DNA from: Caldisericia bacterium
GTDB lineage: Bacteria; Caldisericota; Caldisericia; JAAYUI01
Reading direction: 5' to 3'
Length of the DNA stretch: 64,000 bases
Assembly (NCBI GenBank): GCA_963674785.1
Contig: OY771555.1
Location: forward strand, 128,001-192,000
In this document: piece by piece, positions 37,984-57,132 of the stretch
Layout: each line of letters begins with the position of its first letter
How positions within the stretch are numbered: position 1 is the first letter of the stretch
Made by a program: the position numbers and the translations under genes
The notes under the pieces: generated by a model
Told to the model about the DNA's origin: nothing
Seen by the model: the letters and a program-made list of their open reading frames with translations, nothing else
Databases searched by the model: none

Positions 37984-38059
37984 GGGCGGGTGGCTCAGTT
38001 GGTAGAGCATTTCCTTCACACGGAAGAGGTCGCAGGTTCGAGTCCTGTCTCGCCCACCA
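37984..38059 (+). tRNA. tRNA-Val (CAC)
   Basis: Acceptor GGGCGGG/CTCGCCC-A-CCA, D-arm GCTC/GAGC, anticodon loop TTCACAC, T-loop GTTCGAG. Confidence 0.97.
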
Positions 38060-41151: not shown

Positions 41152-44100
41152 TTGTTTAATTCAAGATTCAATATAATCAGAAAACTCGGGGAAGGAGGAA
41201 TGGGTGAGGTGTATCTTGCCCACGATACCAGAACTGGGTCTGATGTTGCTCTCAAGATCGCAAACCTTGAGAGTTCAACTGCTAGAGAGAGATTCTTACG
41301 TGAAATTGAGATTCTTTCAAGTATTTCACATGAAAACATTGTTGACTACATAGACAATGGGATCAATGGAAATACTCTCTGGTATGAAATGGAATATATT
41401 CCCGGACTCCAGTTAATCCACTGGTTTAAGGGACAAAGCAATATTGATTTTAAAAGTCTTGCAAAAATCTTTTCTAAGATTGCATCAGCCTTATCTACTC
41501 TTCATACAAATGGGATTATTCACCGCGACATAAAACCCGATAATATTTTGGTTTGTAATGGGGAACCAATAATCGTTGATTTTGGTGTGGCACATCTAAT
41601 CGATAAGGGAGATCGAGCAAAGCTTACGAGAGCAGGTTCTGTTGTAGGTACAATCCAGTATATGTCTCCAGAACAAGTAACGGGAAGCCATATCGATGGG
41701 CGCTCAGACCTTCACTCACTTGGTGTGATCATGTATGAATTATTAACTGGAGAACACCCATACGAAGCAACCACTCTGCCGGGAATGATCTCAAGAATCC
41801 TTCAAGAAAGACCAATAAAACCATCAAGTCTAAACCCAGATATACCCGACAACCTTGAAATGATAATACTCAAGCTTCTGGAGAAAAACCCTGACTTGAG
41901 GTACAAATCAGCCGACGAACTCGAAACAGCTCTTCTGAGGTATTGTAGTGGAGGGGTTCTGACTGAGGCTGTCAATCTTTCACCACTAAAGACTAATGCT
42001 TCAAGAGATATTCCATTCGTTGGAAGAGATAAAGAACTAAATCAGCTCGAACTCTTACTTCACTCAGCAATCTCAGGAAGAGGACAGGCTATTGAAATCT
42101 TTGGTGAAGATGGTTTAGGAAAATCAAGATTGATTGAGGAATTCAGAGCACAGGCTCTTGGACACCTTTCAAAATTCCTATTGTGTTCACCACAAATAGA
42201 GGGAAGCTCAAGACTAGCAATATCATCAATTCTCGACCAACTAGCTGATTATGAAATCAATTTTGACAACAGGATTATAAAAAAACATCCACACATGATT
42301 AGAAGTCTTTCTGCAAAATTTGCAGACTCTGTCGGAATAGAAGAAAAGCCGCCTAACATCGGAGATTCAAAAGATATCCCAAACGTTGTTGCTGAAATAA
42401 TAATCAATGCCTTCCCAGAAATCCCATCTATTTATGTTTTTGAAGATGGAATTGATAGTCTTACATTTGAAATCGCAACAGAGATTTCAAAAAAAATTGC
42501 AGATAGAAAAATAGTTGTGTGTTTTGCGACAGAAAATGAGTTAAGCAAAACGATAGCAGAAAAAAAAGGCTTATCAGGGCAAGCAAATTTTTCAAAACTA
42601 ATTCTTAAACCACTTCAAAAAAATGAAATTGACGCGCTTTCAAGAGCTATCCTTGGCAGAGATTTATCCGAACCAGAAATGGATAAGATCTTTGCCAGTT
42701 CAAACGGAATGCCAAATGTTGCAATCCAGCTTCTCTCAAATATGCGTGAGGGTAGTAGGACAGTCTCACTCACATCTCTACCTGAAAATGTAAACAGCAT
42801 TTATCTTGAAAAAATCTCAAAACTTGGAGGGGAGACAAAACAACTTATTGAAGTGATGTCTCTTTTGAAGAAACCAATTCCAATCGGTCTATTGAGTCCA
42901 ATTTCATCTCTTGAAAAAGTGGATTTTGATCTTGCGTTTGAAACTCTTGATTCAATTGGATTCATTAAAGAAAAAAACATAGGCAGAGAACTTGTTGTAG
43001 AACTTGCAACAGCTGATTTGAAAAAGATAGTCTGTGAAGAACTGAAAAAAGAAAAAGCAAAAGAATACCATAATCGAATCGCTTCAACTCTTGAAATCTA
43101 CTACTCAGACACAAAAGATCAGGACATAAAAAAACGTATAGCAGAACACTATGTTGAAGCTGAAGAATTTGATAAATCATCAGAGCTATATTTATCAATA
43201 TTCAGTTATTACAACTCACATGGGAATTCAAAAAATGCAATTGATGCGATTAATGAACTTGAAAGAAACTTTGAGAAAATAACCAAAAAATCTCTGATTA
43301 TAAATTCTGTGTACTATTTCCTTATCAATTTTCCACTAACAAACCAAATGGAATTGTTTGAAAAATACAAGTTAATTGGTTTGCAACTATTAGAGAAAAA
43401 TGACCTACCTGGTTACACAGTTTTTTCGTATTATTCTGCAATTGGTGGTGCATACTTAAGGCAAAGACTTCTACTTGAATCGAGAAAACACATTGATAAA
43501 GCAAGAACTCTATACGACCAGGTCGAAGACAGTCGAAAACTGGATTTAAATATCCACGAAATTAATCAGGCAATTTTTGAAACAAACATTGAAACGCTCC
43601 GTGAGCTACTTGAAGAGCGAAAACGACTGCTTGAAAACACAAATGCTTCGGAGATTGACTGGATACCTTATTACAATAGTGAAGCAATATATTTCTCTGA
43701 AATTGGAAGCCATGCAAACGCCGTAGAAAACTTTAAAAAATCGCTTTCGATTGCCAAAAGACTCAACCATAAAAGGCAAGAACTTAGGGCGCTCACAAAT
43801 CTTGGAACTGCATGCGCTCACGCTGATCTTAATTTCAAAGCGATCGATTATTATAAACAGGCTCTAAAACTTGCAAAAGATCTTACTCTTGAAAACATTC
43901 ATGCCCTAATCTTAAATGACATGGCAAACCTTTATCTAAATGAAGGTAAAACCGTAGAATACCGAAATATATTACTTGAATACAAAAGACTGTATGAGGA
44001 TAAGGAAATCACAAAGGCTTTGATTGATTGGACATATAATTATTCACACCTCAAGGTTTTAGAAAATGATTTTGATGAAGCAGAAAACATCTTATCAAAA

Positions 44101-44769
44101 ATGAAAAACAGGGTAATTGAGTCAAACAGAAGTTTCTGGCTTCGCGAAGTCCTATATTATGAGGCACTGTGCACATTTGATAAAAACAATTTTAGAAGAG
44201 CAAAACTTCTGTTTTTACAACTCCTTGACCTTTTCAAGATTGATAAATTAGAGGACACCTTAACTCAGCTTTTCATATCAAATATTCATCTTGCCCACAT
44301 ATATGTCATCGAAGGCGAACTTGATGAAGCCGAAGAACACTACCAGAAAGCTTATTCTCTCTGCAGGAGTTACAAACAAGATATTCTTGAAAATAACCTC
44401 TTTTTTGCTGAAGCCCATATTGAGTTTGCAAAATCCATAAAAAAAGGCAGCTTTGGATTCAAAGAGTTTTTTGATGAAAGCTCATGGAGAACCTCATACA
44501 ACATTTTGATGCAGTTATCCAAAAAGTGTGAACACAAAAAATATACTATGTCAATTCTTCCAACAAGTGCTACAGAGCTTTTCGCAAAACTCGTTATCCT
44601 CAGAATAAAAAACGACAAGAAACTCCGGACAATTGAAAGAAGACAGATTTTTGAGCAGGCTGTAAATCAAATCGAACTATTATTGAAAAAATATTCAGAA
44701 CACAATTTTTCTTACAAACGTGATGAAATCATTGAGCTTAATAACGAGCTTATAATGCTTCTCGAATAG
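41152..44769 (+). CDS. Ser/Thr kinase - AAA ATPase - TPR protein (STAND-like)
   Basis: GEGGMGEVY, HRDIKPDN, DFG, YMSPE; FVGRDKEL, Walker A GEDGLGKS; helical TPR C-terminus. Confidence 0.9.
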   Translation: MFNSRFNIIRKLGEGGMGEVYLAHDTRTGSDVALKIANLESSTARERFLREIEILSSISHENIVDYIDNGINGNTLWYEMEYIPGLQLIHWFKGQSNIDFKSLAKIFSKIASALSTLHTNGIIHRDIKPDNILVCNGEPIIVDFGVAHLIDKGDRAKLTRAGSVVGTIQYMSPEQVTGSHIDGRSDLHSLGVIMYELLTGEHPYEATTLPGMISRILQERPIKPSSLNPDIPDNLEMIILKLLEKNPDLRYKSADELETALLRYCSGGVLTEAVNLSPLKTNASRDIPFVGRDKELNQLELLLHSAISGRGQAIEIFGEDGLGKSRLIEEFRAQALGHLSKFLLCSPQIEGSSRLAISSILDQLADYEINFDNRIIKKHPHMIRSLSAKFADSVGIEEKPPNIGDSKDIPNVVAEIIINAFPEIPSIYVFEDGIDSLTFEIATEISKKIADRKIVVCFATENELSKTIAEKKGLSGQANFSKLILKPLQKNEIDALSRAILGRDLSEPEMDKIFASSNGMPNVAIQLLSNMREGSRTVSLTSLPENVNSIYLEKISKLGGETKQLIEVMSLLKKPIPIGLLSPISSLEKVDFDLAFETLDSIGFIKEKNIGRELVVELATADLKKIVCEELKKEKAKEYHNRIASTLEIYYSDTKDQDIKKRIAEHYVEAEEFDKSSELYLSIFSYYNSHGNSKNAIDAINELERNFEKITKKSLIINSVYYFLINFPLTNQMELFEKYKLIGLQLLEKNDLPGYTVFSYYSAIGGAYLRQRLLLESRKHIDKARTLYDQVEDSRKLDLNIHEINQAIFETNIETLRELLEERKRLLENTNASEIDWIPYYNSEAIYFSEIGSHANAVENFKKSLSIAKRLNHKRQELRALTNLGTACAHADLNFKAIDYYKQALKLAKDLTLENIHALILNDMANLYLNEGKTVEYRNILLEYKRLYEDKEITKALIDWTYNYSHLKVLENDFDEAENILSKMKNRVIESNRSFWLREVLYYEALCTFDKNNFRRAKLLFLQLLDLFKIDKLEDTLTQLFISNIHLAHIYVIEGELDEAEEHYQKAYSLCRSYKQDILENNLFFAEAHIEFAKSIKKGSFGFKEFFDESSWRTSYNILMQLSKKCEHKKYTMSILPTSATELFAKLVILRIKNDKKLRTIERRQIFEQAVNQIELLLKKYSEHNFSYKRDEIIELNNELIMLLE

Positions 44770-44798
44770 ACCATAAATAAAAAAGTAAACATTGATTC

Positions 44799-44827
44799 TT
44801 GAAGAAGCCACATTGTTGTTGTATATT
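44799..44827 (+). promoter_or_regulatory. Sigma70 promoter of the leader-ABC-selD operon
   Basis: TTGAAG (44799)-17 nt-TATATT (44822). Confidence 0.6.
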
Positions 44828-44852
44828 CATGGCACTTATGAAGGAGATTGTA

Positions 44853-44942
44853 ATGACAACTTACAGATCGCTTTGAGCAAACAAAGGCAGATGGTTCATC
44901 TGCCAAGCCCAGACGGTCTGTTGCTTCATTTTGACCGTCTGA
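44853..44942 (+). CDS. Putative selenocysteine-containing leader peptide MTTYRSL(U)ANKGRWFICQAQTVCCFILTV
   Basis: SD AAGGAG 6 nt before ATG 44853. In-frame TGA at 44874, then 9 nt and the hairpin GGCAGAT-GGTTC-ATCTGCC, with the same geometry as the selD SECIS. Confidence 0.6.
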
Positions 44943-44967
44943 AAACTTAGACTTAGGAGGTCATTTT

Positions 44968-46131
44968 ATGAAGCGTTTCGTTACATTTGCACTTATTCTT
45001 TTCCTCGCACTTGGAGTCTTTGTCTCGTGTGGTGCTGAAAAAAAGGTGGATACAGAACCGACACCAGCAGACGTCACACCAGCAGAACTCCCTCTTTTGA
45101 GAGTGGGACACGTCAATCAGGATCATCACCTTGCACTCTACGTCGCAGCACTAAAAGGCGAATTCTTTAAGGATCAAGGTGTCTGGATGACAGAGATCAA
45201 ACCTAAAGAAAGATACACACTCCACACAGAAAATGGAGCTATCGCTGAGGTTCAACTTGTCAAATCTAAAGGTGGTTCAGAGATGACAAACAACCTCCTT
45301 GCAGGTCTTTTTGATATTGGCTTTGGTGGAGTTCCTGCAGTTATGAGTGTTGTTGATAAAGGAAAAGATGTCAGGATTCTGATGCCTTTGCAAAACGCTG
45401 GCGACCAGCTCATCGTAAAAAAAGATATGCCAGTCGAAAACTGGGAAGAGTTTGTAGAATACGTAAAAAATAACGAAACACAGCTGAAACTCGGATACAA
45501 AGCCCCAACTGCAGTTCAATACATCGTTGCTCAAAAGGCATTTACAGAAGTTGGAATCACACAAACAGAAGACCCAACAAATACAGATGCAATGGTTCTT
45601 TGGATCAATCAAAAGGGTCAAAATAACATGACCACAAATCTGGCTGCAGGTCAAGTTGATGGGTTTGTAGCAAATCAACCAACACCGGCACAAGCGATCA
45701 TATCTGATGTAGGAAAATTTATCACTGAACTTTCTGTATTGCCACCAGATGGAATGTGGAACCATCACCCATGCTGTATGGTTTGCAGCAATGAAAAGGT
45801 CAAAACAGAATACCCAGAGGAAACAAAACAGTTCCTTAAACTCATCATGCTTGCAACAGACCACATAAATGACGACATGGATGATGCAATCGAAATTGCC
45901 TACGAATTCCTCGGACAAAAAGAAGGGGTTGAACACTTATCCATTCCAACTGTATACTACAACTGCGATGACGATGAAGTTTGGAGAGGTGGAGTTGCAA
46001 CATGGGCAGTTGTTATGAATGAAATCGGAAAATATACAGGAGAACTAAAGGATATCAACGATGAAAGAGCAGTTGATCTCTGTGTTGATTTCACATTCCT
46101 TCACGAACTTCAAAAGGAGTTAGGAAAATAG
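44968..46131 (+). CDS. ABC transporter substrate-binding lipoprotein (SsuA/TauA/NMT1-like) with HPCC motif
   Basis: Lipobox FVS-C, GHVNQDHHLALYVA, WNHHPCCMVC. Confidence 0.88.
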   Translation: MKRFVTFALILFLALGVFVSCGAEKKVDTEPTPADVTPAELPLLRVGHVNQDHHLALYVAALKGEFFKDQGVWMTEIKPKERYTLHTENGAIAEVQLVKSKGGSEMTNNLLAGLFDIGFGGVPAVMSVVDKGKDVRILMPLQNAGDQLIVKKDMPVENWEEFVEYVKNNETQLKLGYKAPTAVQYIVAQKAFTEVGITQTEDPTNTDAMVLWINQKGQNNMTTNLAAGQVDGFVANQPTPAQAIISDVGKFITELSVLPPDGMWNHHPCCMVCSNEKVKTEYPEETKQFLKLIMLATDHINDDMDDAIEIAYEFLGQKEGVEHLSIPTVYYNCDDDEVWRGGVATWAVVMNEIGKYTGELKDINDERAVDLCVDFTFLHELQKELGK

Positions 46132-46163
46132 ACCGACAAAAGATTTCTAAAATTTTATGGAGC

Positions 46164-46973
46164 GTGGGTGGAGCAATTGTTCTACCCCTGCTTCTTTTTC
46201 TTGTTTGGGATTACAGTGCTGCAAGACTTGGCTCATCAACTCTGCTTCCCAGAGTATCCGATGTTTTTGATGTGGTTTTGCATCCCACAGAAGACCTAAT
46301 CAGACAAGGCACCCTGCTCTTCCATGTCTATGTTTCATCGATTCGGGTATTGATGGGTTTTGTGATAGGATCGTTGCTTGCCATAGTTCTTGGAATGATA
46401 ATGGGTTTATCAGACAAAGTAAGGCATTTTGTCACACCATTCATCGAGATACTAAGACCGCTTTGTCCTGTTGCCTGGATTCCCTTCGCGATAATTATCT
46501 TCGGTGGAGCGACCCTTTCAAACACATTTGGATACAAGTTTACTGATTCGATTCTTGATTATGTTCAGATTGCTCAACTATTCATTATCGCCTGGGGAGC
46601 ATTCTTTCCGGTATTAATAAACACGATTGATGGCGTCAGTGGTGTCAGAAAAATATGGGTTGAAACAGCAAAAACGATGAACGCATCCAAACTACAGATT
46701 TGGTCAAAGGTGATTCTCCCCGCAAGCTTCCCATCCATTTTGACTGGGCTTAAGGTTGGACTTGGTATCAGCTGGATGGTTGTAATTGCAGCCGAGATGT
46801 TTCCGGGTCCTTCTGCTGGAATCGGGTATCTGATGATGGAGGCATACGCACAAACTGAAATCCATATTCTCGCTGCCGGATTAATCACAGTTGGAATCAT
46901 CGGAGCGCTTCTGAACGCCATTTTAGCGGTTATCCATAAAACCTTTGCGGGTTGGCAGGCGAAGGAACGATAA
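46164..46973 (+). CDS. ABC transporter permease (SsuC/TauC-like)
   Basis: LRPLCPVAWIP, FFPVLINT, ETAKTMNAS (EAA loop), WMVVIAAEM. Confidence 0.92.
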   Translation: MGGAIVLPLLLFLVWDYSAARLGSSTLLPRVSDVFDVVLHPTEDLIRQGTLLFHVYVSSIRVLMGFVIGSLLAIVLGMIMGLSDKVRHFVTPFIEILRPLCPVAWIPFAIIIFGGATLSNTFGYKFTDSILDYVQIAQLFIIAWGAFFPVLINTIDGVSGVRKIWVETAKTMNASKLQIWSKVILPASFPSILTGLKVGLGISWMVVIAAEMFPGPSAGIGYLMMEAYAQTEIHILAAGLITVGIIGALLNAILAVIHKTFAGWQAKER

Positions 46974-46975
46974 AC

Positions 46976-47785
46976 ATGATAAAACTCAGTGCAATATATA
47001 AAGATTTTGATAAGCAGGAAGTTTTGAAAAACATCAATTTGAAATTCTTACCTGGGGAGTTCAACTGTATTCTTGGGCCAACCGGTTGCGGAAAAACAAC
47101 TCTTTTGAGAATTATTGCAGGGCTTCTAAAACCAGATTCAGGTGTAGTCAAAATCGAGAAGCCATCGATTTCAATGATTTTCCAACAGCAAACCCTTTAC
47201 CCATGGAGAAATGCACTCTCAAATGTTTGTCTTCCACTTGAGTTCAAGGGATACTCAAAAAAAGAACGCATCAAAATGGCAATGGCTAGATTAGCCGAGG
47301 TTGATGTAGCAGATGCAGCCAAAAAAAAGGTCTTCCAGCTATCTGGTGGAATGCAGCAGAGAGTACAGATTGCAAGGGCTTTGGTCTCTAATCCATCAGT
47401 ACTTCTTGCTGACGAACCATTCGGTTCACTTGATGAAAAAACAAGATACAAGCTTCAAAAAAAACTCAGAGAGATAACCCTTTCAAACAATACAACAACA
47501 GTTTTTGTAACTCATAATATTGAAGAGGCAATTTATCTTGGAGATAGAATTATTGTAATTGGAAACAAAGGGGTTCAAGCAGATTTTGATCTTACCACCC
47601 CACACCCTAGAGACAGACTTTCGAAATGGTTTACAAGTAAAATTCTTGAAGTAAGAAATGTTTTTGAAACACTCATCGAAGATGAAGATACAACTGATGG
47701 GATTGAAAAAAGCGAAGAACCCGAAGAAAATAACGACCCATTCAAAACAATGAAACTCGATGTGACAACAGATGAAAATGAATAA
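46976..47785 (+). CDS. ABC transporter ATP-binding protein (SsuB/TauB-like)
   Basis: GPTGCGKT, LSGGMQQR, LLADEPFGSLD, FVTHNIEEA; acidic C-terminal extension. Confidence 0.93.
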   Translation: MIKLSAIYKDFDKQEVLKNINLKFLPGEFNCILGPTGCGKTTLLRIIAGLLKPDSGVVKIEKPSISMIFQQQTLYPWRNALSNVCLPLEFKGYSKKERIKMAMARLAEVDVADAAKKKVFQLSGGMQQRVQIARALVSNPSVLLADEPFGSLDEKTRYKLQKKLREITLSNNTTTVFVTHNIEEAIYLGDRIIVIGNKGVQADFDLTTPHPRDRLSKWFTSKILEVRNVFETLIEDEDTTDGIEKSEEPEENNDPFKTMKLDVTTDENE

Positions 47786-48806
47786 AGAAGAAGAGTTCAG
47801 GCTTACAAAATTTGCCGGATGTGCTGGTTGAGAGAGTAAGTGGGGGCCGGGAGCTCTCAAGAAGTTACTCAGTGACTTACCTGTTTTTGAGTCACCAGAT
47901 TTAATCACTCGTGACGTCAATAAAGCTGATGCTGCCGTTTATAAAATCAATGATGATTTATACGGTATCTATACAATTGATGTTTTCTCACCAATTGTTG
48001 ATGACCCTGAAGACTTTGGTGCAATCGCCTTTGCAAATTGTATTTCTGATGTTTGCGCAATGGGTGGGACACCAGTTCTTGGGCTAAATGTTTGTATGTT
48101 CCCAGCAGCAGCTCCAGTTGAAAAACTCAACCTTATACTTAAGGGTGCATCTGAGTCAGCCCAAAAAGAAGGGGTAATAATTGCCGGTGGACACACAACC
48201 AAAAATGATGAACTCCACTACGGACTCTCAGTTTATGGGACTGTAAAACCAGTAGATCTCAGGCTTTCATCAAATGCAAAACCCGGAGACCATATCATCC
48301 TTACAAAAGGACTCGGGACGGGTATCCTTTTTGCAGCAAAAGATAGGGCTGAGGGCGTTAACTGGCAATCAGCAATTGATTCGATGAAACAGACATCCGT
48401 TATTGCGTCAAAAATCCTAACCGAATTTGGATGCAGGTGTAGCACCGATATTACAGGTTTTGGGTTTGTACCACATCTTCTTGAAGTACTCGAAGAGTCA
48501 AGGGTAGCAGCCAAAATTAATCCAGAATCTCTTCCGCTTCTTCCTGGCGTGATTGACTTTTCTAGATCATTTGCCTGTCCGGTTTTATCAACAAACATGG
48601 AACTTGCCGGGGCAAAGTTCGACTCTGGCAAACATGATCCTAAATGGATCAACATCTGCTTTGACGCCCAAACTTCTGGTGGCTTTATTGCATTTGTTTC
48701 AGAAGAAAATGCCGGTAAGTGTTTAGAAAAGCTTATTGATGCAGGATATCAGGCAGCAGATGTTGGTGAGGTTGCTGAGGGTGAGTCGAAAATTACATTG
48801 GTTTAG
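47778..48806 (+). CDS. selD: Selenide, water dikinase; selenoprotein (TGA = Sec at 47829)
   Basis: The frame is open from ATG 47778 (FRLTKFAGCAG-TGA-ESKWGP) through DAAVY, DVFSPIVDDP, ANCISDVCAMGG, GGHT, TDITGFG and DAQTSGG. The ORF track only captured the part from 48060. Confidence 0.93.
47841..47859 (+). promoter_or_regulatory. Bacterial SECIS element of selD
   Basis: 9 nt after the UGA: TGGGGGC-CGGGA-GCTCTCA (7 bp including G-U pairs, G-rich loop). Confidence 0.7.
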
Positions 48807-48832: not shown

Positions 48833-51511
48833 TTAATGGTTTCTGATTGGCCAAATTGTTTGTGTTTTGATAAAGTCTTCGTAACCAGACACATATCCAA
48901 ATCTTGACCTATTATAATAATTTGAAGGCATCAATTCAGACTCCAAAACATCGATAACTCCATTGCTAAGGAACTCCAATCTTACAAATTCCAAATCTTC
49001 CCTGCTGTCCTTTAATCCCCTGAAATATTCAAAATCACTACTCAATAAAACAGAACCTCTTTCTGGTAATCTAAAGGTCAAGAGTTTTTTCTCACCAAAT
49101 TTTAAATCTGTTATTTCTATTGATTCAGAAAACCTAGAATAAATAGGAGCAGCTTCCTTTAACTCATCCTTATAAGTATACCTCTCGTGCCCCCAACCCA
49201 TCAAATAAAAAACTCCTGAAAGATTCTCACCAAATCTATCCCCTCTAGTGTTAACTATTTCGAAAGTTATAGTTTCAGTACCCTGATCTATCATTTTTAT
49301 TGAAAATGTTGGGCATGGTTTCGTTTCATACAAATAGTTATAAAAATCACCACCTGCGCCAAAATGGAGAGTTCTATCCTGATAGATTATTTGAGGATCT
49401 CGAATCCACTGAACTGAATCAACCATAGATGAATACCAATACATAGGCATACTATCGATATTAACCTGGAATATATCCGAATCGATTTCTGGGAATTTTT
49501 CATTGTGAAAAATATTCTTAGCAACGGAAAAGTCAATACATGAGATCCTGTCTAAATACCTGATACCACTTAAATATTCGGGGTTTTCCAGGCTATCTAT
49601 GTATAAATCATCTCCAATTGCAGTAATAATTTTCCCTTTAAAATGTTTGTTTATTCCACCATTTTTTACAATCTCTATTCTTTCCATCAATTCGTCATAG
49701 TAGACAATCGTTGATGGTGTGAAGATAAACTCTTTAGGTTTTGAGCTTAAAACAAGTTTATTTGATTCACCTGTTGTTAGATTTATCGATAAAACTAGAA
49801 ATCTTTGTTTCCCTGATGCCCTTTCTTCCAAATCGAAGACTTTTCCAAAGAAATCATTACATACTATATCTGTCTCATCTTCATCTATATCATCGATCCA
49901 TGGACTTATCCTGTATTTTTCCAAATCGATTTTTTCGTATCCAAACTCCAGGATTTCACCAGTCCTCAAATCAATTTTCCGCATAATTCCATTTTCATGG
50001 TACGAATAACAGAAGAATCCTTTGTGGTAATATGATCCAGCGAAAAAATAATCCTCTTCATTAACATCAAAACTTACCTCTCCTCGCATACCACCATATG
50101 ATTCAACACTAACTGTATAAGCATCTTCATTTTCCTCTACATCCACCCTGCATCTAACTCTAGCATTTGAATCAGCATCATTAATCTCACTACTTGTAAC
50201 ACTATCTGAATAATCAAATGTCAAATCGTCCTTTAACGCAAAAGCACAAACAAAAGAATCACTGCACCAGTTTGACTCATGTGAGTAGTCATAAGCATAA
50301 ATTTTCCCATCGATGTTTTTGCCACCTGATTCTGCATTTGCTAAAACTCTTTTTATCAATTCACCAGTTTTCAAATCATAAATATCAAACTTCCCATAAT
50401 CTCTCGTAAACAAAAAATCACCAGCCAAAAACAAAGTTTCGATATGGTTTCTATCACAATATGGGATACTCAATACCTCTTCTTGGCTCTCAAATGAAAT
50501 CACCTTGTAGCATTGATTCCTAAATGTCCCCTCATCTTCGATGAATTGAGCTGATCTCATACAGTGATACTTCTCATTAAAATCATAGGTAACGCTCTGA
50601 CAACCATTGTTTTCAAATTGAATCCTTTTTATAATTTGCCCATCTTTGCCCAATAAAAACATAATTGTTGTCGTTTGTTAATCAAATTCATCTTCCCCCA
50701 CAAAAGTCAGATAAACCAGATATAAATCCTGCCTATTTAATACACTAAACCGTATATCTTCATCATTGATGATTTTTTTGATTTCTTCAGGGAGATCAAT
50801 AAATACTCCTTCTTTAAGATTTGCGATTTTTTCAGCAGTCATAAGCAAAGTGTCTTTCGAATAACGCTGACTTTTCCTTCGAAGAACTTCTTTCCCACTT
50901 TTCAAATCAATATATTTGTATTCATATTTTTCTCTGAATTTATCTGAAGAACCATCAATTTCTCTAATAAAAACCAAAAATTTGCCAAACAAAAGATCAT
51001 TATACATGAATCCTTCATCATCAACAGTAGGAGAACTCCAGGCAATTTGCATATCAATAAAGTCAAAAAGCTCAAGATAATATACACCATTAACCTCATA
51101 AATATTCTCAATATACCGTGTATTCCACTCCCAAGAATTATCAAGAAACCCAATATTTTCAGTTTTCATTTTCTCATCTAAAATCTGATTTTTATCATAA
51201 CCAATCGGATACAGCTTTTCATTCTTAAAACCTGTTAGGTCTTCATATTCCTTTGAATAGATATCCAATGGTCCATGAATATTGAGGTTTTTGTCAACAA
51301 CATATCTGAATCTGTGATAACTGGAATCCATGTATGATTCACCCATACTCTCATCAAAAGGCATCACATCGACCCCAAAGGTCAATGGAATGATTTTCGA
51401 AGGAGCAACAGGCAAATGAACTGTTACTTTCTCATTCTGCCCAGCAGAAATATTAATAAATTGAACAAACACGAAAACAACAACCAACAATAAAACCTGA
51501 AGTTTTCTCAT
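48833..51511 (-). pseudogene. Secreted beta-propeller-like protein split by an in-frame TAA (ORFs 50678-51511 and 48833-50662)
   Basis: TAA at 50680-50678 is followed in frame by CAA ACG ACA ACA ATT ATG. The signal peptide is only on the first part, and there is no SD before the second. Confidence 0.65.

Positions 51512-55596: not shown

Positions 55597-57132
<1,536 letters not shown>

Follow-up and report, generated by a model that had tools for sequence, protein, structure and literature searches.

The window analysed here, a 64,000-nt stretch of a Caldisericia contig, contains, upstream of an ABC transporter operon, a short leader that we consider slightly more probably than otherwise to be a translational attenuator of the ermC/cat type with a selenocysteine (Sec) UGA as the sensing codon. 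By comparative sequence analysis, the leader comprises four segments with two predicted alternative folds. From the same comparisons we infer Sec insertion, SelB binding, a selenium response, and the polarity of the switch. More tentatively, at a little under even chances, the leader may be a natural riboregulator that gauges Sec-charging by recoding, with the first dedicated selenium-regulated ABC importer of a selenium compound as its target, the substrate-binding lipoprotein (SBP) of which has an invariant HPCC motif. An earlier sequence-only reading of this DNA had proposed the central elements, namely a short ORF with a Sec UGA, a SECIS-like hairpin, and alternative folds over the transporter Shine-Dalgarno (SD) sequence. 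This proposal is supported in part, by the invariance of the UGA, a reading frame kept in five of five distinct leaders, covariation, and the Sec machinery of the genome.

The elements listed in that reading were all present when read directly from the sequence. A sigma-70-like promoter on the + strand (44799-44827; 9/12 matches in the promoter scan) is formed by TTGAAG (44799-44804), a 17-nt spacer, and TATATT (44822-44827), and in the alignment, inspected by eye, the three congeners have promoter-like hexamers at the corresponding position. The leader start codon ATG 44853 is preceded by the SD sequence AAGGAG (44841-44846, + strand), which is kept in the genus. As a counterpoint to attenuation, the divergent locus L024 has no SD sequence before its AUG. 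The ORF (44853-44942, + strand) consists of seven codons, the in-frame UGA as codon 8 (44874-44876), which is the candidate Sec and sensing codon and is invariant in 6/6 aligned rows, 21 further codons, and a stop TGA (44940-44942) located 25 nt upstream of the transporter ATG 44968; its read-through product spans 29 codons. Past the UGA, the ORF continues for 21 codons in all four genus members, and in L024 for 11 codons followed by TAG. A promoter-proximal ATG (44838-44840, + strand), 10 nt past the -10 box and 12 codons upstream of the UGA in the same frame, is a possible start of the leader ORF, which would then be nearly leaderless. An AUG in the UGA frame 10-13 nt after the -10 box was found in all five distinct leaders (12, 12, 12, 13, and 10 codons), although an in-frame AUG alone is weak evidence.

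The leader (44830-44990) folds with -53 kcal/mol, compared with a mean of -36.0 kcal/mol (sd 3.5) for shuffled sequences (z -4.9), and none of the 200 shuffles was as stable. At gathering thresholds, an Rfam search over the window returned rRNA and tRNA only, with no match in the leader; at E values up to 10 over positions 44500-48400, two chance-level matches were obtained, both outside the leader. A short ORF lies upstream of the transporter genes, as an attenuator on the same transcript would. An RNA-library contig from an ~89%-identical relative, an assembled sequence that indicates neither a transcript start nor an expression level, begins at 44849 and extends into the SBP gene, which weakly suggests that the transporter mRNA includes the leader.

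The bacterial SECIS consensus is a stem-loop about 9-14 nt past the UGA, with a small apical loop containing G, usually GU. The leader hairpin GGCAGAT-GGTTC-ATCTGCC (44886-44904, + strand) lies 9 nt past the UGA, and one extra G-C pair can close within it to give 8 bp and a GUU loop. The geometry agrees with the consensus throughout: in the five distinct leaders, the hairpin is 9-10 nt past the UGA, the stem has 7-8 bp, and the loop reads (A)GUU(N). As to translation of the frame that carries the UGA, an AUG is available in 5/5 leaders and an SD-preceded start in the genus only. The selD gene of the same operon has its TGA at 47829, followed by a 9-nt spacer and TGGGGGC-CGGGA-GCTCTCA. The sequence-only reading had equated the geometry of these two hairpins; the 9-nt spacer and the 7-bp stem are indeed shared, whereas the leader loop closes further to GUU and the selD loop CGGGA lacks GUU, the latter being a counterpoint to the proposed attenuator.

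The SECIS reference set consisted of selD and two genes with a TGA conserved in the best ortholog matches, the latter being kept after an ortholog check from a noisy initial selenoprotein scan (184 candidates, of which 12 were fetched and 10 run through Pfam). The TGA of one reference gene is conserved in 5/5 genomes and that of the other in 4/5, G004 being without it and the G001 match also having a TAA. The reference stems have 5-8 bp and are located 9-14 nt past the UGA, with the loops GUU, GUA, GUC, C-GUG-C, C-GUG-A, UGGAU, CGGGA, and CGGGU. These ranges cover the spacer and stem of all five distinct leaders. Using a descriptor devised after the leader had been seen (9-12 nt spacer, 7-8 bp stem, 3-5 nt loop, and GU at position 1 or 2), leader-type hairpins were found after 48 of the 112,657 TGA triplets of the genome (0.04%), including the leader and both reference genes. 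Among the 22 inspected of the 47 other matches, there was no comparable leader. The genome encodes selA, selB, and tRNA-Sec (selC), together with a Sec-type selD, so the machinery needed in the host is present; selB and a Sec-type selD were also found in all five relatives tested. The leader hairpin is described here as a putative SelB-binding SECIS that would direct Sec insertion.

Segment 1 (44864-44873, + strand) comprises the last codons before the UGA and pairs with positions 44911-44920 of segment 2 (44910-44920, + strand) as helix P1 (1:2). Through positions 44910-44918, segment 2 can pair instead with 44933-44941 of segment 3 (44933-44943, + strand), which holds the second stop of the leader. 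Segment 3 has another partner in segment 4 (CTTAGGAGGTC, 44952-44962, + strand), which includes the transporter SD sequence AGGAGG (44955-44960), and helix 3:4 thereby buries it. The off fold, composed of 1:2 and 3:4 with the SD sequence hidden, and the alternative fold 2:3 with the SD sequence free, are mutually exclusive, as in an attenuator. No terminator-like site was detected on the + strand between 44800 and 44970 by the terminator scan. The 3' tails of the leader vary among species, and helix 3:4 does not form an intrinsic terminator with a U run as in trp-type leaders. With no + strand terminator found, control would act on translation.

All four leader helices contain pairs changed on both sides: three of the 10 pairs in helix 1:2 (93% of cells paired), two of the 10 in helix 3:4 (98%), and five of the eight in the SECIS-like hairpin (96%), with five both-side changes among the nine pairs of helix 2:3 (98%); these counts are not independent events, because only five distinct sequences, four of them from congeners, were available. 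At alignment columns 34-79-104, a three-way covariation was observed, with G/C/G in some sequences and A/U/A in others. For the off fold, to which the alignment was fitted and which does not include helix 2:3, 95.7% of 164 cells were paired and 10/28 pairs were altered on both sides, a result matched by 0/500 shuffles; slid controls gave 29-46% paired. RNAalifold recovered the off fold from a plain MAFFT alignment. The alternative folds of the sequence-only reading were thus retained, with corrections. Its hairpin A is identical to helix 2:3 and covaries. For its hairpin B, which would enclose the SD sequence, the register GTCTGA/TTAGAC exists in the window genome only; the conserved SD-hiding helix, which also covaries, joins 44933-44943 with 44952-44962. 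The pairing of 44864-44873 with 44911-44920 had been overlooked. An outer helix between the SD sequence of the leader itself and CUUCA was considered and dropped, as its covariation was unconvincing and the pairing is disrupted in G002.

Segment 1 directly precedes the UGA at 44874, so a ribosome waiting there would cover it and favour helix 2:3. With the stretch from 15 nt before to 11 nt after the UGA masked, the structure of minimum energy became 2:3 instead of 1:2 plus 3:4 in 4/5 sequences, the fifth adopting the 2:3 fold already when unmasked. The accompanying gain in predicted SD accessibility (mean unpaired probability) was modest, from 0.17-0.41 to 0.46-0.59, and in the genus leaders a local hairpin AGACUU/AGGUCU is predicted to be still able to hold part of the SD sequence. 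With consensus pairs only, the on fold of the window leader is slightly more stable than the off fold (-28.4 vs. -26.2 kcal/mol). All three of these points weigh against the attenuator.

From these predictions, the attenuator would operate as follows. With no ribosome on the leader, helix 1:2 would be the base of a long hairpin with the SECIS-like stem-loop at its tip, and 3:4 would hide the SD sequence, leaving the operon off. At low selenium, Sec-tRNA(Sec)-SelB would be scarce, and the ribosome would dwell or terminate at the UGA, covering segment 1 while the apical hairpin and segment 2 stay free; segment 2 could then pair with segment 3, and the released SD sequence would allow translation of the transporter, plus selD in three of the four species. 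At high selenium, SelB bound to the hairpin would deliver Sec-tRNA, and the ribosome would traverse segments 2 and 3 as far as the second stop; after its passage, helix 1:2 would re-form and 3:4 would close, returning the operon to the off state. In L024, segment 2 itself carries the second stop; a ribosome that had read through would there prevent 2:3 from forming and spare 3:4, which fits read-through as the off condition. The sequence-only reading had likewise favoured expression at low and repression at high selenium, for a different reason, having missed that a ribosome at the UGA masks segment 1. Two counterpoints to attenuation concern the ribosome itself: RF2 might terminate at the UGA too fast for a useful dwell, and the second stop in the genus is 12 nt upstream of the SD sequence, so that re-initiation after read-through is possible.

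The same segments can be read with reversed polarity, which we regard as unlikely. A read-through ribosome would then melt 3:4 and end 12 nt before the SD sequence, re-initiation or a new 30S subunit would follow, and plentiful Sec-tRNA would switch the operon on in a feed-forward manner. In 4/4 genus members, the second stop indeed belongs to segment 3 and precedes the SBP start by 25-30 nt; a ribosome placed on it raises the predicted SD accessibility to 0.75 in the window, and the compensating indels in G002 keep the frame up to it. A stop codon in segment 3 is, however, expected anyway, arising naturally because CCU(G/A)AG complements the CUUAGG preceding the SD sequence. Reversed polarity also leaves helix 2:3, the best-supported helix, without a role, and in L024, in which the read-through stop is about 57 nt from the start and belongs to segment 2, 3:4 is predicted to persist there with an SD accessibility of 0.17. 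Short leader ORFs commonly end at stop codons, and any pause of the ribosome where an ORF ends would serve the four-segment logic; the leader could therefore be an ordinary short uORF ending at the UGA, with a hairpin that merely caps 1:2, no selenium sensing, and an output that tracks general translation or RF2. This is very unlikely, given that the first stop is always UGA whereas the second uses all three codons, that the hairpin spacing and GU loop match the true SECIS elements of the clade and recur after so small a fraction of TGAs (0.04%), and that selD belongs to the operon in 3/4 species.

A translation-free RNA switch was judged quite unlikely. Here, SelB/Sec-tRNA, another protein, or a small ligand would bind the hairpin and the UGAG region and stabilise 1:2 plus 3:4, in the manner of a riboswitch or of the E. 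coli selAB operator. The switch helices are real, the L024 leader ORF is without an SD sequence, and E. coli offers a precedent, since SelB bound to a SECIS-like element in the selAB 5' UTR represses selAB, according to the accessible part of PMC13449736. The two cases are alike in that expression of an operon of the selenium pathway follows, by proposal in Caldisericia, the state of SelB/Sec-tRNA through a SECIS-type hairpin in the 5' leader. The E. coli element is presented there as a protein-bound operator with no UGA and no leader ORF, 3 nt from the SD sequence, whereas the Caldisericia hairpin is preceded by an in-frame UGA, stops about 50 nt short of the regulated SD sequence, and belongs to a four-segment switch. 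A UGA-less hairpin adjoining the SD sequence, as in a selAB-type operator, is thus not what the leader contains. Without translation, the invariant UGA at SECIS distance, the in-frame AUG in 5/5 leaders, and the canonical SD sequence before the second in-frame start in the genus are left unexplained, and helix 1:2 has no opener at hand except the ribosome. In addition, the leader matches no Rfam family and has no aptamer-like core, because the nucleotides separating the hairpin from the UGA show no sequence conservation. A Sec-type UGA with a SECIS-like hairpin could also encode a functional selenoprotein only 28-34 residues long, such as a selenium or metal carrier partnering the transporter, and Cys-Cys occurs in 3/5 distinct peptides. 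This is highly improbable: the peptides share no more than (R/G/L)-(S/L)-L-U and a few residues at paired RNA columns, their length after U is 11 in L024 and 21 in the genus, and the window peptide matched no NCBIfam family. The Cys-rich peptide noted in the sequence-only reading is not conserved as such and probably has no function of its own as a product.

Five distinct versions of the attenuator-like leader were compared, representing four species of one Caldisericia genus and the divergent L024. The leader was found upstream of the SBP gene in 4/4 genus species, at two near-identical metagenome loci, and at L024, the SBP of which is 53% identical to that of the window. An archaeal origin of L024, suspected from its GatD gene, was rejected, as the GatD of the window genome is 81% identical to it and L024 thus belongs to a related bacterium. 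The short ORF, the in-frame UGA, and the hairpins are conserved in these relatives, with covariation in both hairpin A and the SD helix. The reading frame is preserved in 5/5 distinct sequences, including that of G002, where +1 and -1 indels flank the hairpin and the frame is restored. The UGA is invariant though unpaired in the consensus structure, and the second stop varies among TGA, TAA, and TAG. A covariance model (R1) identified the leader in 4/11 family genomes and, with stricter filters, in 4/93 phylum genomes. A second model including L024 (R2) identified the same four among 41 class genomes, plus three matches at E 0.06-0.9, which were rejected on inspection for lack of the UGA-hairpin architecture. 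Scans of genome contigs and metagenome contigs yielded three loci each with very narrow peptide patterns, by which distant carriers may be missed. In the window genome, the covariance model matched a single locus, with no second copy. Within the searches made, uncultured Caldisericia of a single genus, together with one relative, were the only carriers found, which limits how far the element can be generalised.

In ermC/cat translational attenuation, an antibiotic-dependent stall acts on the nascent peptide in the leader ORF. The Caldisericia leader resembles these systems in its short ORF, in the four segments pairing as 1:2 plus 3:4 or as 2:3, in the hiding of the SD sequence by 3:4 and its release by a ribosome on segment 1, and in the lack of a terminator. 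The proposed stall differs, being at a UGA that needs SelB and Sec-tRNA, and it is only in the Caldisericia leader that helix 1:2 is topped by a SECIS-like hairpin. Attenuators that work through leader peptides are known both for antibiotics and for standard amino acids. None has been described for the 21st amino acid as far as our literature searches reach, subscription journals being largely outside them; the sequence-only reading had likewise known of no Sec-codon uORF attenuator, and no equivalent was found. If the proposed mechanism is true, stop-codon recoding can serve as a sensor beyond its role as a coding device, the leader would be a compact, RNA-only, selenium-responsive genetic part, and there would be regulatory evidence for selenium import by this NitT/TauT-type transporter.

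In the trp/his/leu leaders, the supply of a charged tRNA is sensed by ribosome speed at leader codons, as stated in the accessible part of PMC3892789. The likeness to the Caldisericia leader, as proposed, is that the amount of one charged tRNA decides which alternative RNA fold forms; the former use intrinsic terminators and runs of sense codons, and the latter has no terminator found, an SD sequence as the target, and a single recoded stop. The same part of that source reports for Treponema primitia fdhF(Sec) that completion of the transcript depends on selenium. As described there, an undecoded Sec-UGA at low selenium alters expression through ribosome behaviour at the UGA/SECIS, which is comparable, but the UGA is inside the regulated gene, the transcript is truncated prematurely, and low selenium means less product. 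The Caldisericia leader, in contrast, has a dedicated ORF and is proposed to switch a downstream operon on at low selenium.

The regulated operon on the + strand comprises a substrate-binding lipoprotein of the NMT1_2 / NitT-TauT type (44968-46131; PF13379, E 1.6e-25), an ABC permease (46164-46973; PF00528), an ABC ATPase with an uncertain start codon (46952-47785; PF00005), and selD (47772-48806; TIGR00476, 267.7 bits), with its in-frame TGA at 47829-47831 and SECIS at 47841-47859. The sequence-only reading had named it a transporter-selD operon, which holds for three of the four genus species; in the other one, selD is missing from the operon. The HPCC motif of the SBP is invariant, with P268, C269, and C270 in 27 sequences. 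The transporter is a distant relative of the Sao transporter SaoX/SaoP/SaoA, so far as the latter is described in the accessible text of bioRxiv 10.1101/2022.07.06.499078, in which the word "leader" does not occur. The permease has SaoP as its best NCBIfam match (155.9 bits, under the cut-off of 295), and the SBP, a lipoprotein with a Cys-Cys motif, has a weak SaoX match. The differences are that all scores are under the family cut-offs, that the gating position of the permease has neither Cys nor Sec, and that there are no Sao neighbours. In Methanococcus, selenium starvation induced transporter genes, none of which was required, according to the accessible part of a 2024 study (PMC11097638). 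A further counterpoint to attenuation lies in the operon itself, in that selD, among the induced genes, requires Sec.

The source genome is represented by a single contig of 2.23 Mb. All leader elements listed in the sequence-only reading were found at 44799-44970 of the window, confirming the earlier observation: a sigma-70-like promoter (TTGAAG-17-TATATT, also recovered by a promoter scan), AAGGAG and an ATG (44853) opening a short ORF, an in-frame TGA (44874), a SECIS-like hairpin beginning 9 nt 3' of it (44886-44904), the second stop of the ORF (44940), and the AGGAGG and start codon (44968) of the transporter. Four pairing segments were delimited: segment 1 (44864-73), formed by the codons directly ahead of the UGA, and its partner segment 2 (44911-20), and segment 3 (44933-43) and its partner segment 4 (CTTAGGAGGTC, 44952-62), which includes the Shine-Dalgarno (SD) sequence. 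The operon downstream encodes an NMT1_2-type substrate-binding lipoprotein (SBP, 44968-46131), an ABC permease, an ABC ATPase and SelD, whose gene has an in-frame TGA (47829) with its own stem-loop 9 nt further on. The leader folds at -53 kcal/mol against a shuffle mean of -36.0 (z -4.9), a stability equalled by none of 200 shuffles. An Rfam search of the leader returned no family match.

The genome encodes selA, SelB with a winged-helix domain, and tRNA-Sec adjoining selB, so that the Sec machinery assumed by the sequence-only reading is present and the organism can decode UGA as Sec. SelB and a Sec-type selD were present in all five relatives tested. The SBP gene was found in 4 of the 41 relatives searched, namely this genome and all three remaining species of the genus, and the leader accompanies it in all four. 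Covariance-model searches detected the leader in 4/11 family, 4/93 phylum and 4/41 class genomes; three further weak matches were spurious on inspection of the sequence. Scans of sequence collections yielded two more loci that are near-identical and a divergent one, L024, whose SBP is 53% identical and whose leader scored only 29.9 bits against the genus-built model. Within the reach of these searches, the element is restricted to one genus and one relative, and the short ORF, its UGA and the hairpins are kept across both. GatD is an archaeal marker; an archaeal origin of L024 was rejected, since its GatD is 81% identical to that of this genome, and L024 is therefore bacterial and related to it. 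The GatD-type gene of these Caldisericia (L062, G000:C1:1308846-1310225 in this genome; L024:2374-3753) exceeds the cut-off of the gatD_arch model.

The UGA does not vary in any of the six alignment rows, even though the consensus leaves it unpaired; the last stop of the leader ORF varies (TGA, TAA or TAG). An AUG in frame with the UGA lies 10-13 nt past the -10 box in all five distinct leaders, at a distance of 12, 12, 12, 13 and 10 codons from the UGA, and a second in-frame start in the genus is preceded by a canonical AAGGAG. The leader of one congener, G002, differs from the others by a 3-nt in-frame insertion 5' of the UGA, and a +1/-1 indel pair around its hairpin regains the frame up to the common stop position. 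No SD was found ahead of the AUG of L024, whose leader may, as a guess, be read as a near-leaderless message. The leader peptides are poorly conserved, which suggests that the act of translation counts more than its product.

Two genes of the clade with an in-frame TGA kept in orthologs, together with selD, provided a comparison for the hairpin. One encodes a secreted protein whose N terminus bears a UxxC motif, its TGA being present in 5/5 genomes at 34-69% identity; the best matches of the other, a PQQ-type beta-propeller protein, carry one TGA in 4/5 genomes, the match of the relative G001 having a TAA as well. The stem-loops of both genes and selD lie 9-14 nt 3' of the UGA and have 5-8 bp stems with GUU, GUA, GUC, C-GUG-C, C-GUG-A, UGGAU, CGGGA or CGGGU loops. 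The leader hairpins, with a spacer of 9-10 nt, 7-8 bp and an (A)GUU(N) loop, fall inside this range of true SECIS elements, and 5/8 of their pairs are altered on both sides. A descriptor of this geometry, drawn up with the leader already known, matched 48 of 112,657 genomic TGA triplets, including the leader and both genes. Counted from the U of the UGA, the G-U of the loop comes after about 21-24 nt, the place that the SelB-contacting G23 and U24 take in E. coli fdhF.

Both genes are located outside the window. The UxxC protein (TGA at L026:199-201, G000:C1:1767789) is a secreted, multi-domain protein of ~790 aa with BACON/Ig-like and copper amine oxidase N-terminal domains, an N-terminal U-T-K-C and a GUU-loop SECIS 11 nt 3' of the TGA. 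The TGA of the beta-propeller gene (L025:1045-1047, G000:C1:1493975) is followed after 12 nt by an 8-bp GUC-loop hairpin and occupies a repeat position where the remaining blades have F, D, S, W, A or Y; the protein may represent an undescribed selenoprotein family. A small secreted protein (L030, G000:C1:541302) carries GTYG-TGA-GSGGGC past its signal peptide; a weak hairpin with a GUUG loop follows the TGA after 7 nt.

From a plain MAFFT alignment of the four genus members, RNAalifold predicted two structures: segments 1 and 2 paired in a long hairpin with the SECIS-like stem-loop on top, and helix 3:4, which buries the SD. In this off fold, counted on the six-row alignment A4, 95.7% of 164 cells held standard pairs and 10/28 pairs showed both-side changes, values reached by 0/500 shuffles, with the caveats that a single genus supplies four of the five distinct sequences and that the alignment is partly biased to the off structure. 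Sliding the partners by 1-3 columns reduced pairing to 29-46%. Helix 2:3, which leaves the SD free and corresponds to hairpin A of the two mutually exclusive hairpins proposed earlier, was left out of the model used to fit the alignment; it was paired in 98% of cells, with 5/9 pairs altered on both sides. Both-side changes are found in both alternative folds. Columns 34, 79 and 104 covary, reading G/C/G or A/U/A depending on the sequence, as expected of a segment shared between two partners. By consensus-pair energies, the off fold was lower by 2.7-8.2 kcal/mol in 5/6 rows; in the window, the on fold was lower by 2.2 kcal/mol, so that the energies of the two folds lie close together.

In its architecture the leader follows translational attenuation of the ermC/cat type; a search of the leader for terminators found none, and the SD is the target. 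For the full mechanism, a translational attenuator sensing the Sec UGA is favoured by a modest balance. The leader would be translated, and a ribosome holding the UGA in the A site would cover segment 1 and halt just before the hairpin, the presumed SelB-binding site. When Sec-tRNA(Sec)-SelB is scarce, longer dwell or termination at the UGA would let helix 2:3 form and the transporter be translated; prompt Sec insertion would carry the ribosome past segments 2 and 3, behind which 1:2 would re-form and 3:4 close, giving a response to selenium. To model the ribosome, bases from 15 nt 5' to 11 nt 3' of the UGA were barred from pairing; 4/5 sequences then changed their minimum-energy fold from 1:2 and 3:4 to 2:3, which the fifth adopted even when free, and the predicted mean SD accessibility rose from 0.17-0.41 to 0.46-0.59.

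The low-Sec-tRNA "on" polarity is argued for by L024, where the read-through stop lies within segment 2: a ribosome modelled there blocks 2:3 and keeps 3:4 (accessibility 0.17). In the genus, the second stop is just 12 nt 5' of the SD, and re-initiation past it could reverse the polarity; this possible reading is rated lower because it leaves helix 2:3 without a role. What comparison of the sequences shows is the folds, frame, invariant UGA and SECIS-like geometry; leader translation, insertion of Sec, binding by SelB and regulation by selenium are inferred. The earlier interpretation is upheld in its core, with details corrected. An RNA-library contig from an ~89%-identical relative starts at 44849 and runs through the SBP gene, and a DNA contig of the same study reaches further upstream, which hints weakly that the mRNA includes the leader and has its 5' end close to the predicted promoter. 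The RNA-library contig has four leader substitutions (positions read by eye); the hairpin and 2:3 stay paired (C-to-T giving G-U, A-to-G giving U-G).

Among the closest known systems are the ermC/cat and trp leader-peptide attenuators, the SECIS-like operator of E. coli selAB (PMC13449736) and the selenium-dependent transcript completion of Treponema primitia fdhF(Sec) (PMC3892789). In none of them do a dedicated leader ORF, a Sec UGA with SECIS and an SD-sequestering switch occur together. No Sec-codon leader element was found in the literature searched, mostly outside subscription journals, and the words leader, uORF and attenuat- are absent from a 2026 review of prokaryotic selenoproteomes (PMC13188914).

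The claimed transporter-selD operon holds in 3/4 species; in G002 the Sec-type selD genes, of which there are two, lie at other sites, which links the leader to the transporter and not to selD. The G002 operon has a 381-aa secreted protein after it in place of selD, and of the two selD copies of that genome one adjoins DsrE-like genes (loci L021/L023, L037 and L042). The best NCBIfam match of the permease is SaoP and the SBP weakly matches SaoX, all under cut-offs; the similarity to Sao is distant. A search of 5.8 billion proteins gave 32 SBP clusters at E 1e-30 or better, a small family whose outlying members bear labels such as Phycisphaerales and Nitrospirae. Across 27 aligned SBPs, the invariant residues include Pro-Cys-Cys (the PCC in HPCC) and several positions in a histidine-rich GHVxxDH block, which suggests a soft-metal or metalloid binding site. 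A Sec-sensing leader would speak for a selenium compound as the substrate.

The gene immediately 5' of the leader (41152-44769) encodes a Ser/Thr protein kinase of 1205 aa that contains AAA_16 and TPR regions; this gene is also upstream in G002, its C-terminal end is upstream in G003, and it is absent there in G001. Two ORFs past selD (609 and 277 aa; 48833-51511, - strand) have no Pfam or NCBIfam match. The window also contains a complete 16S rRNA gene (55597-57132, -) and a tRNA gene (37984-38056, +).
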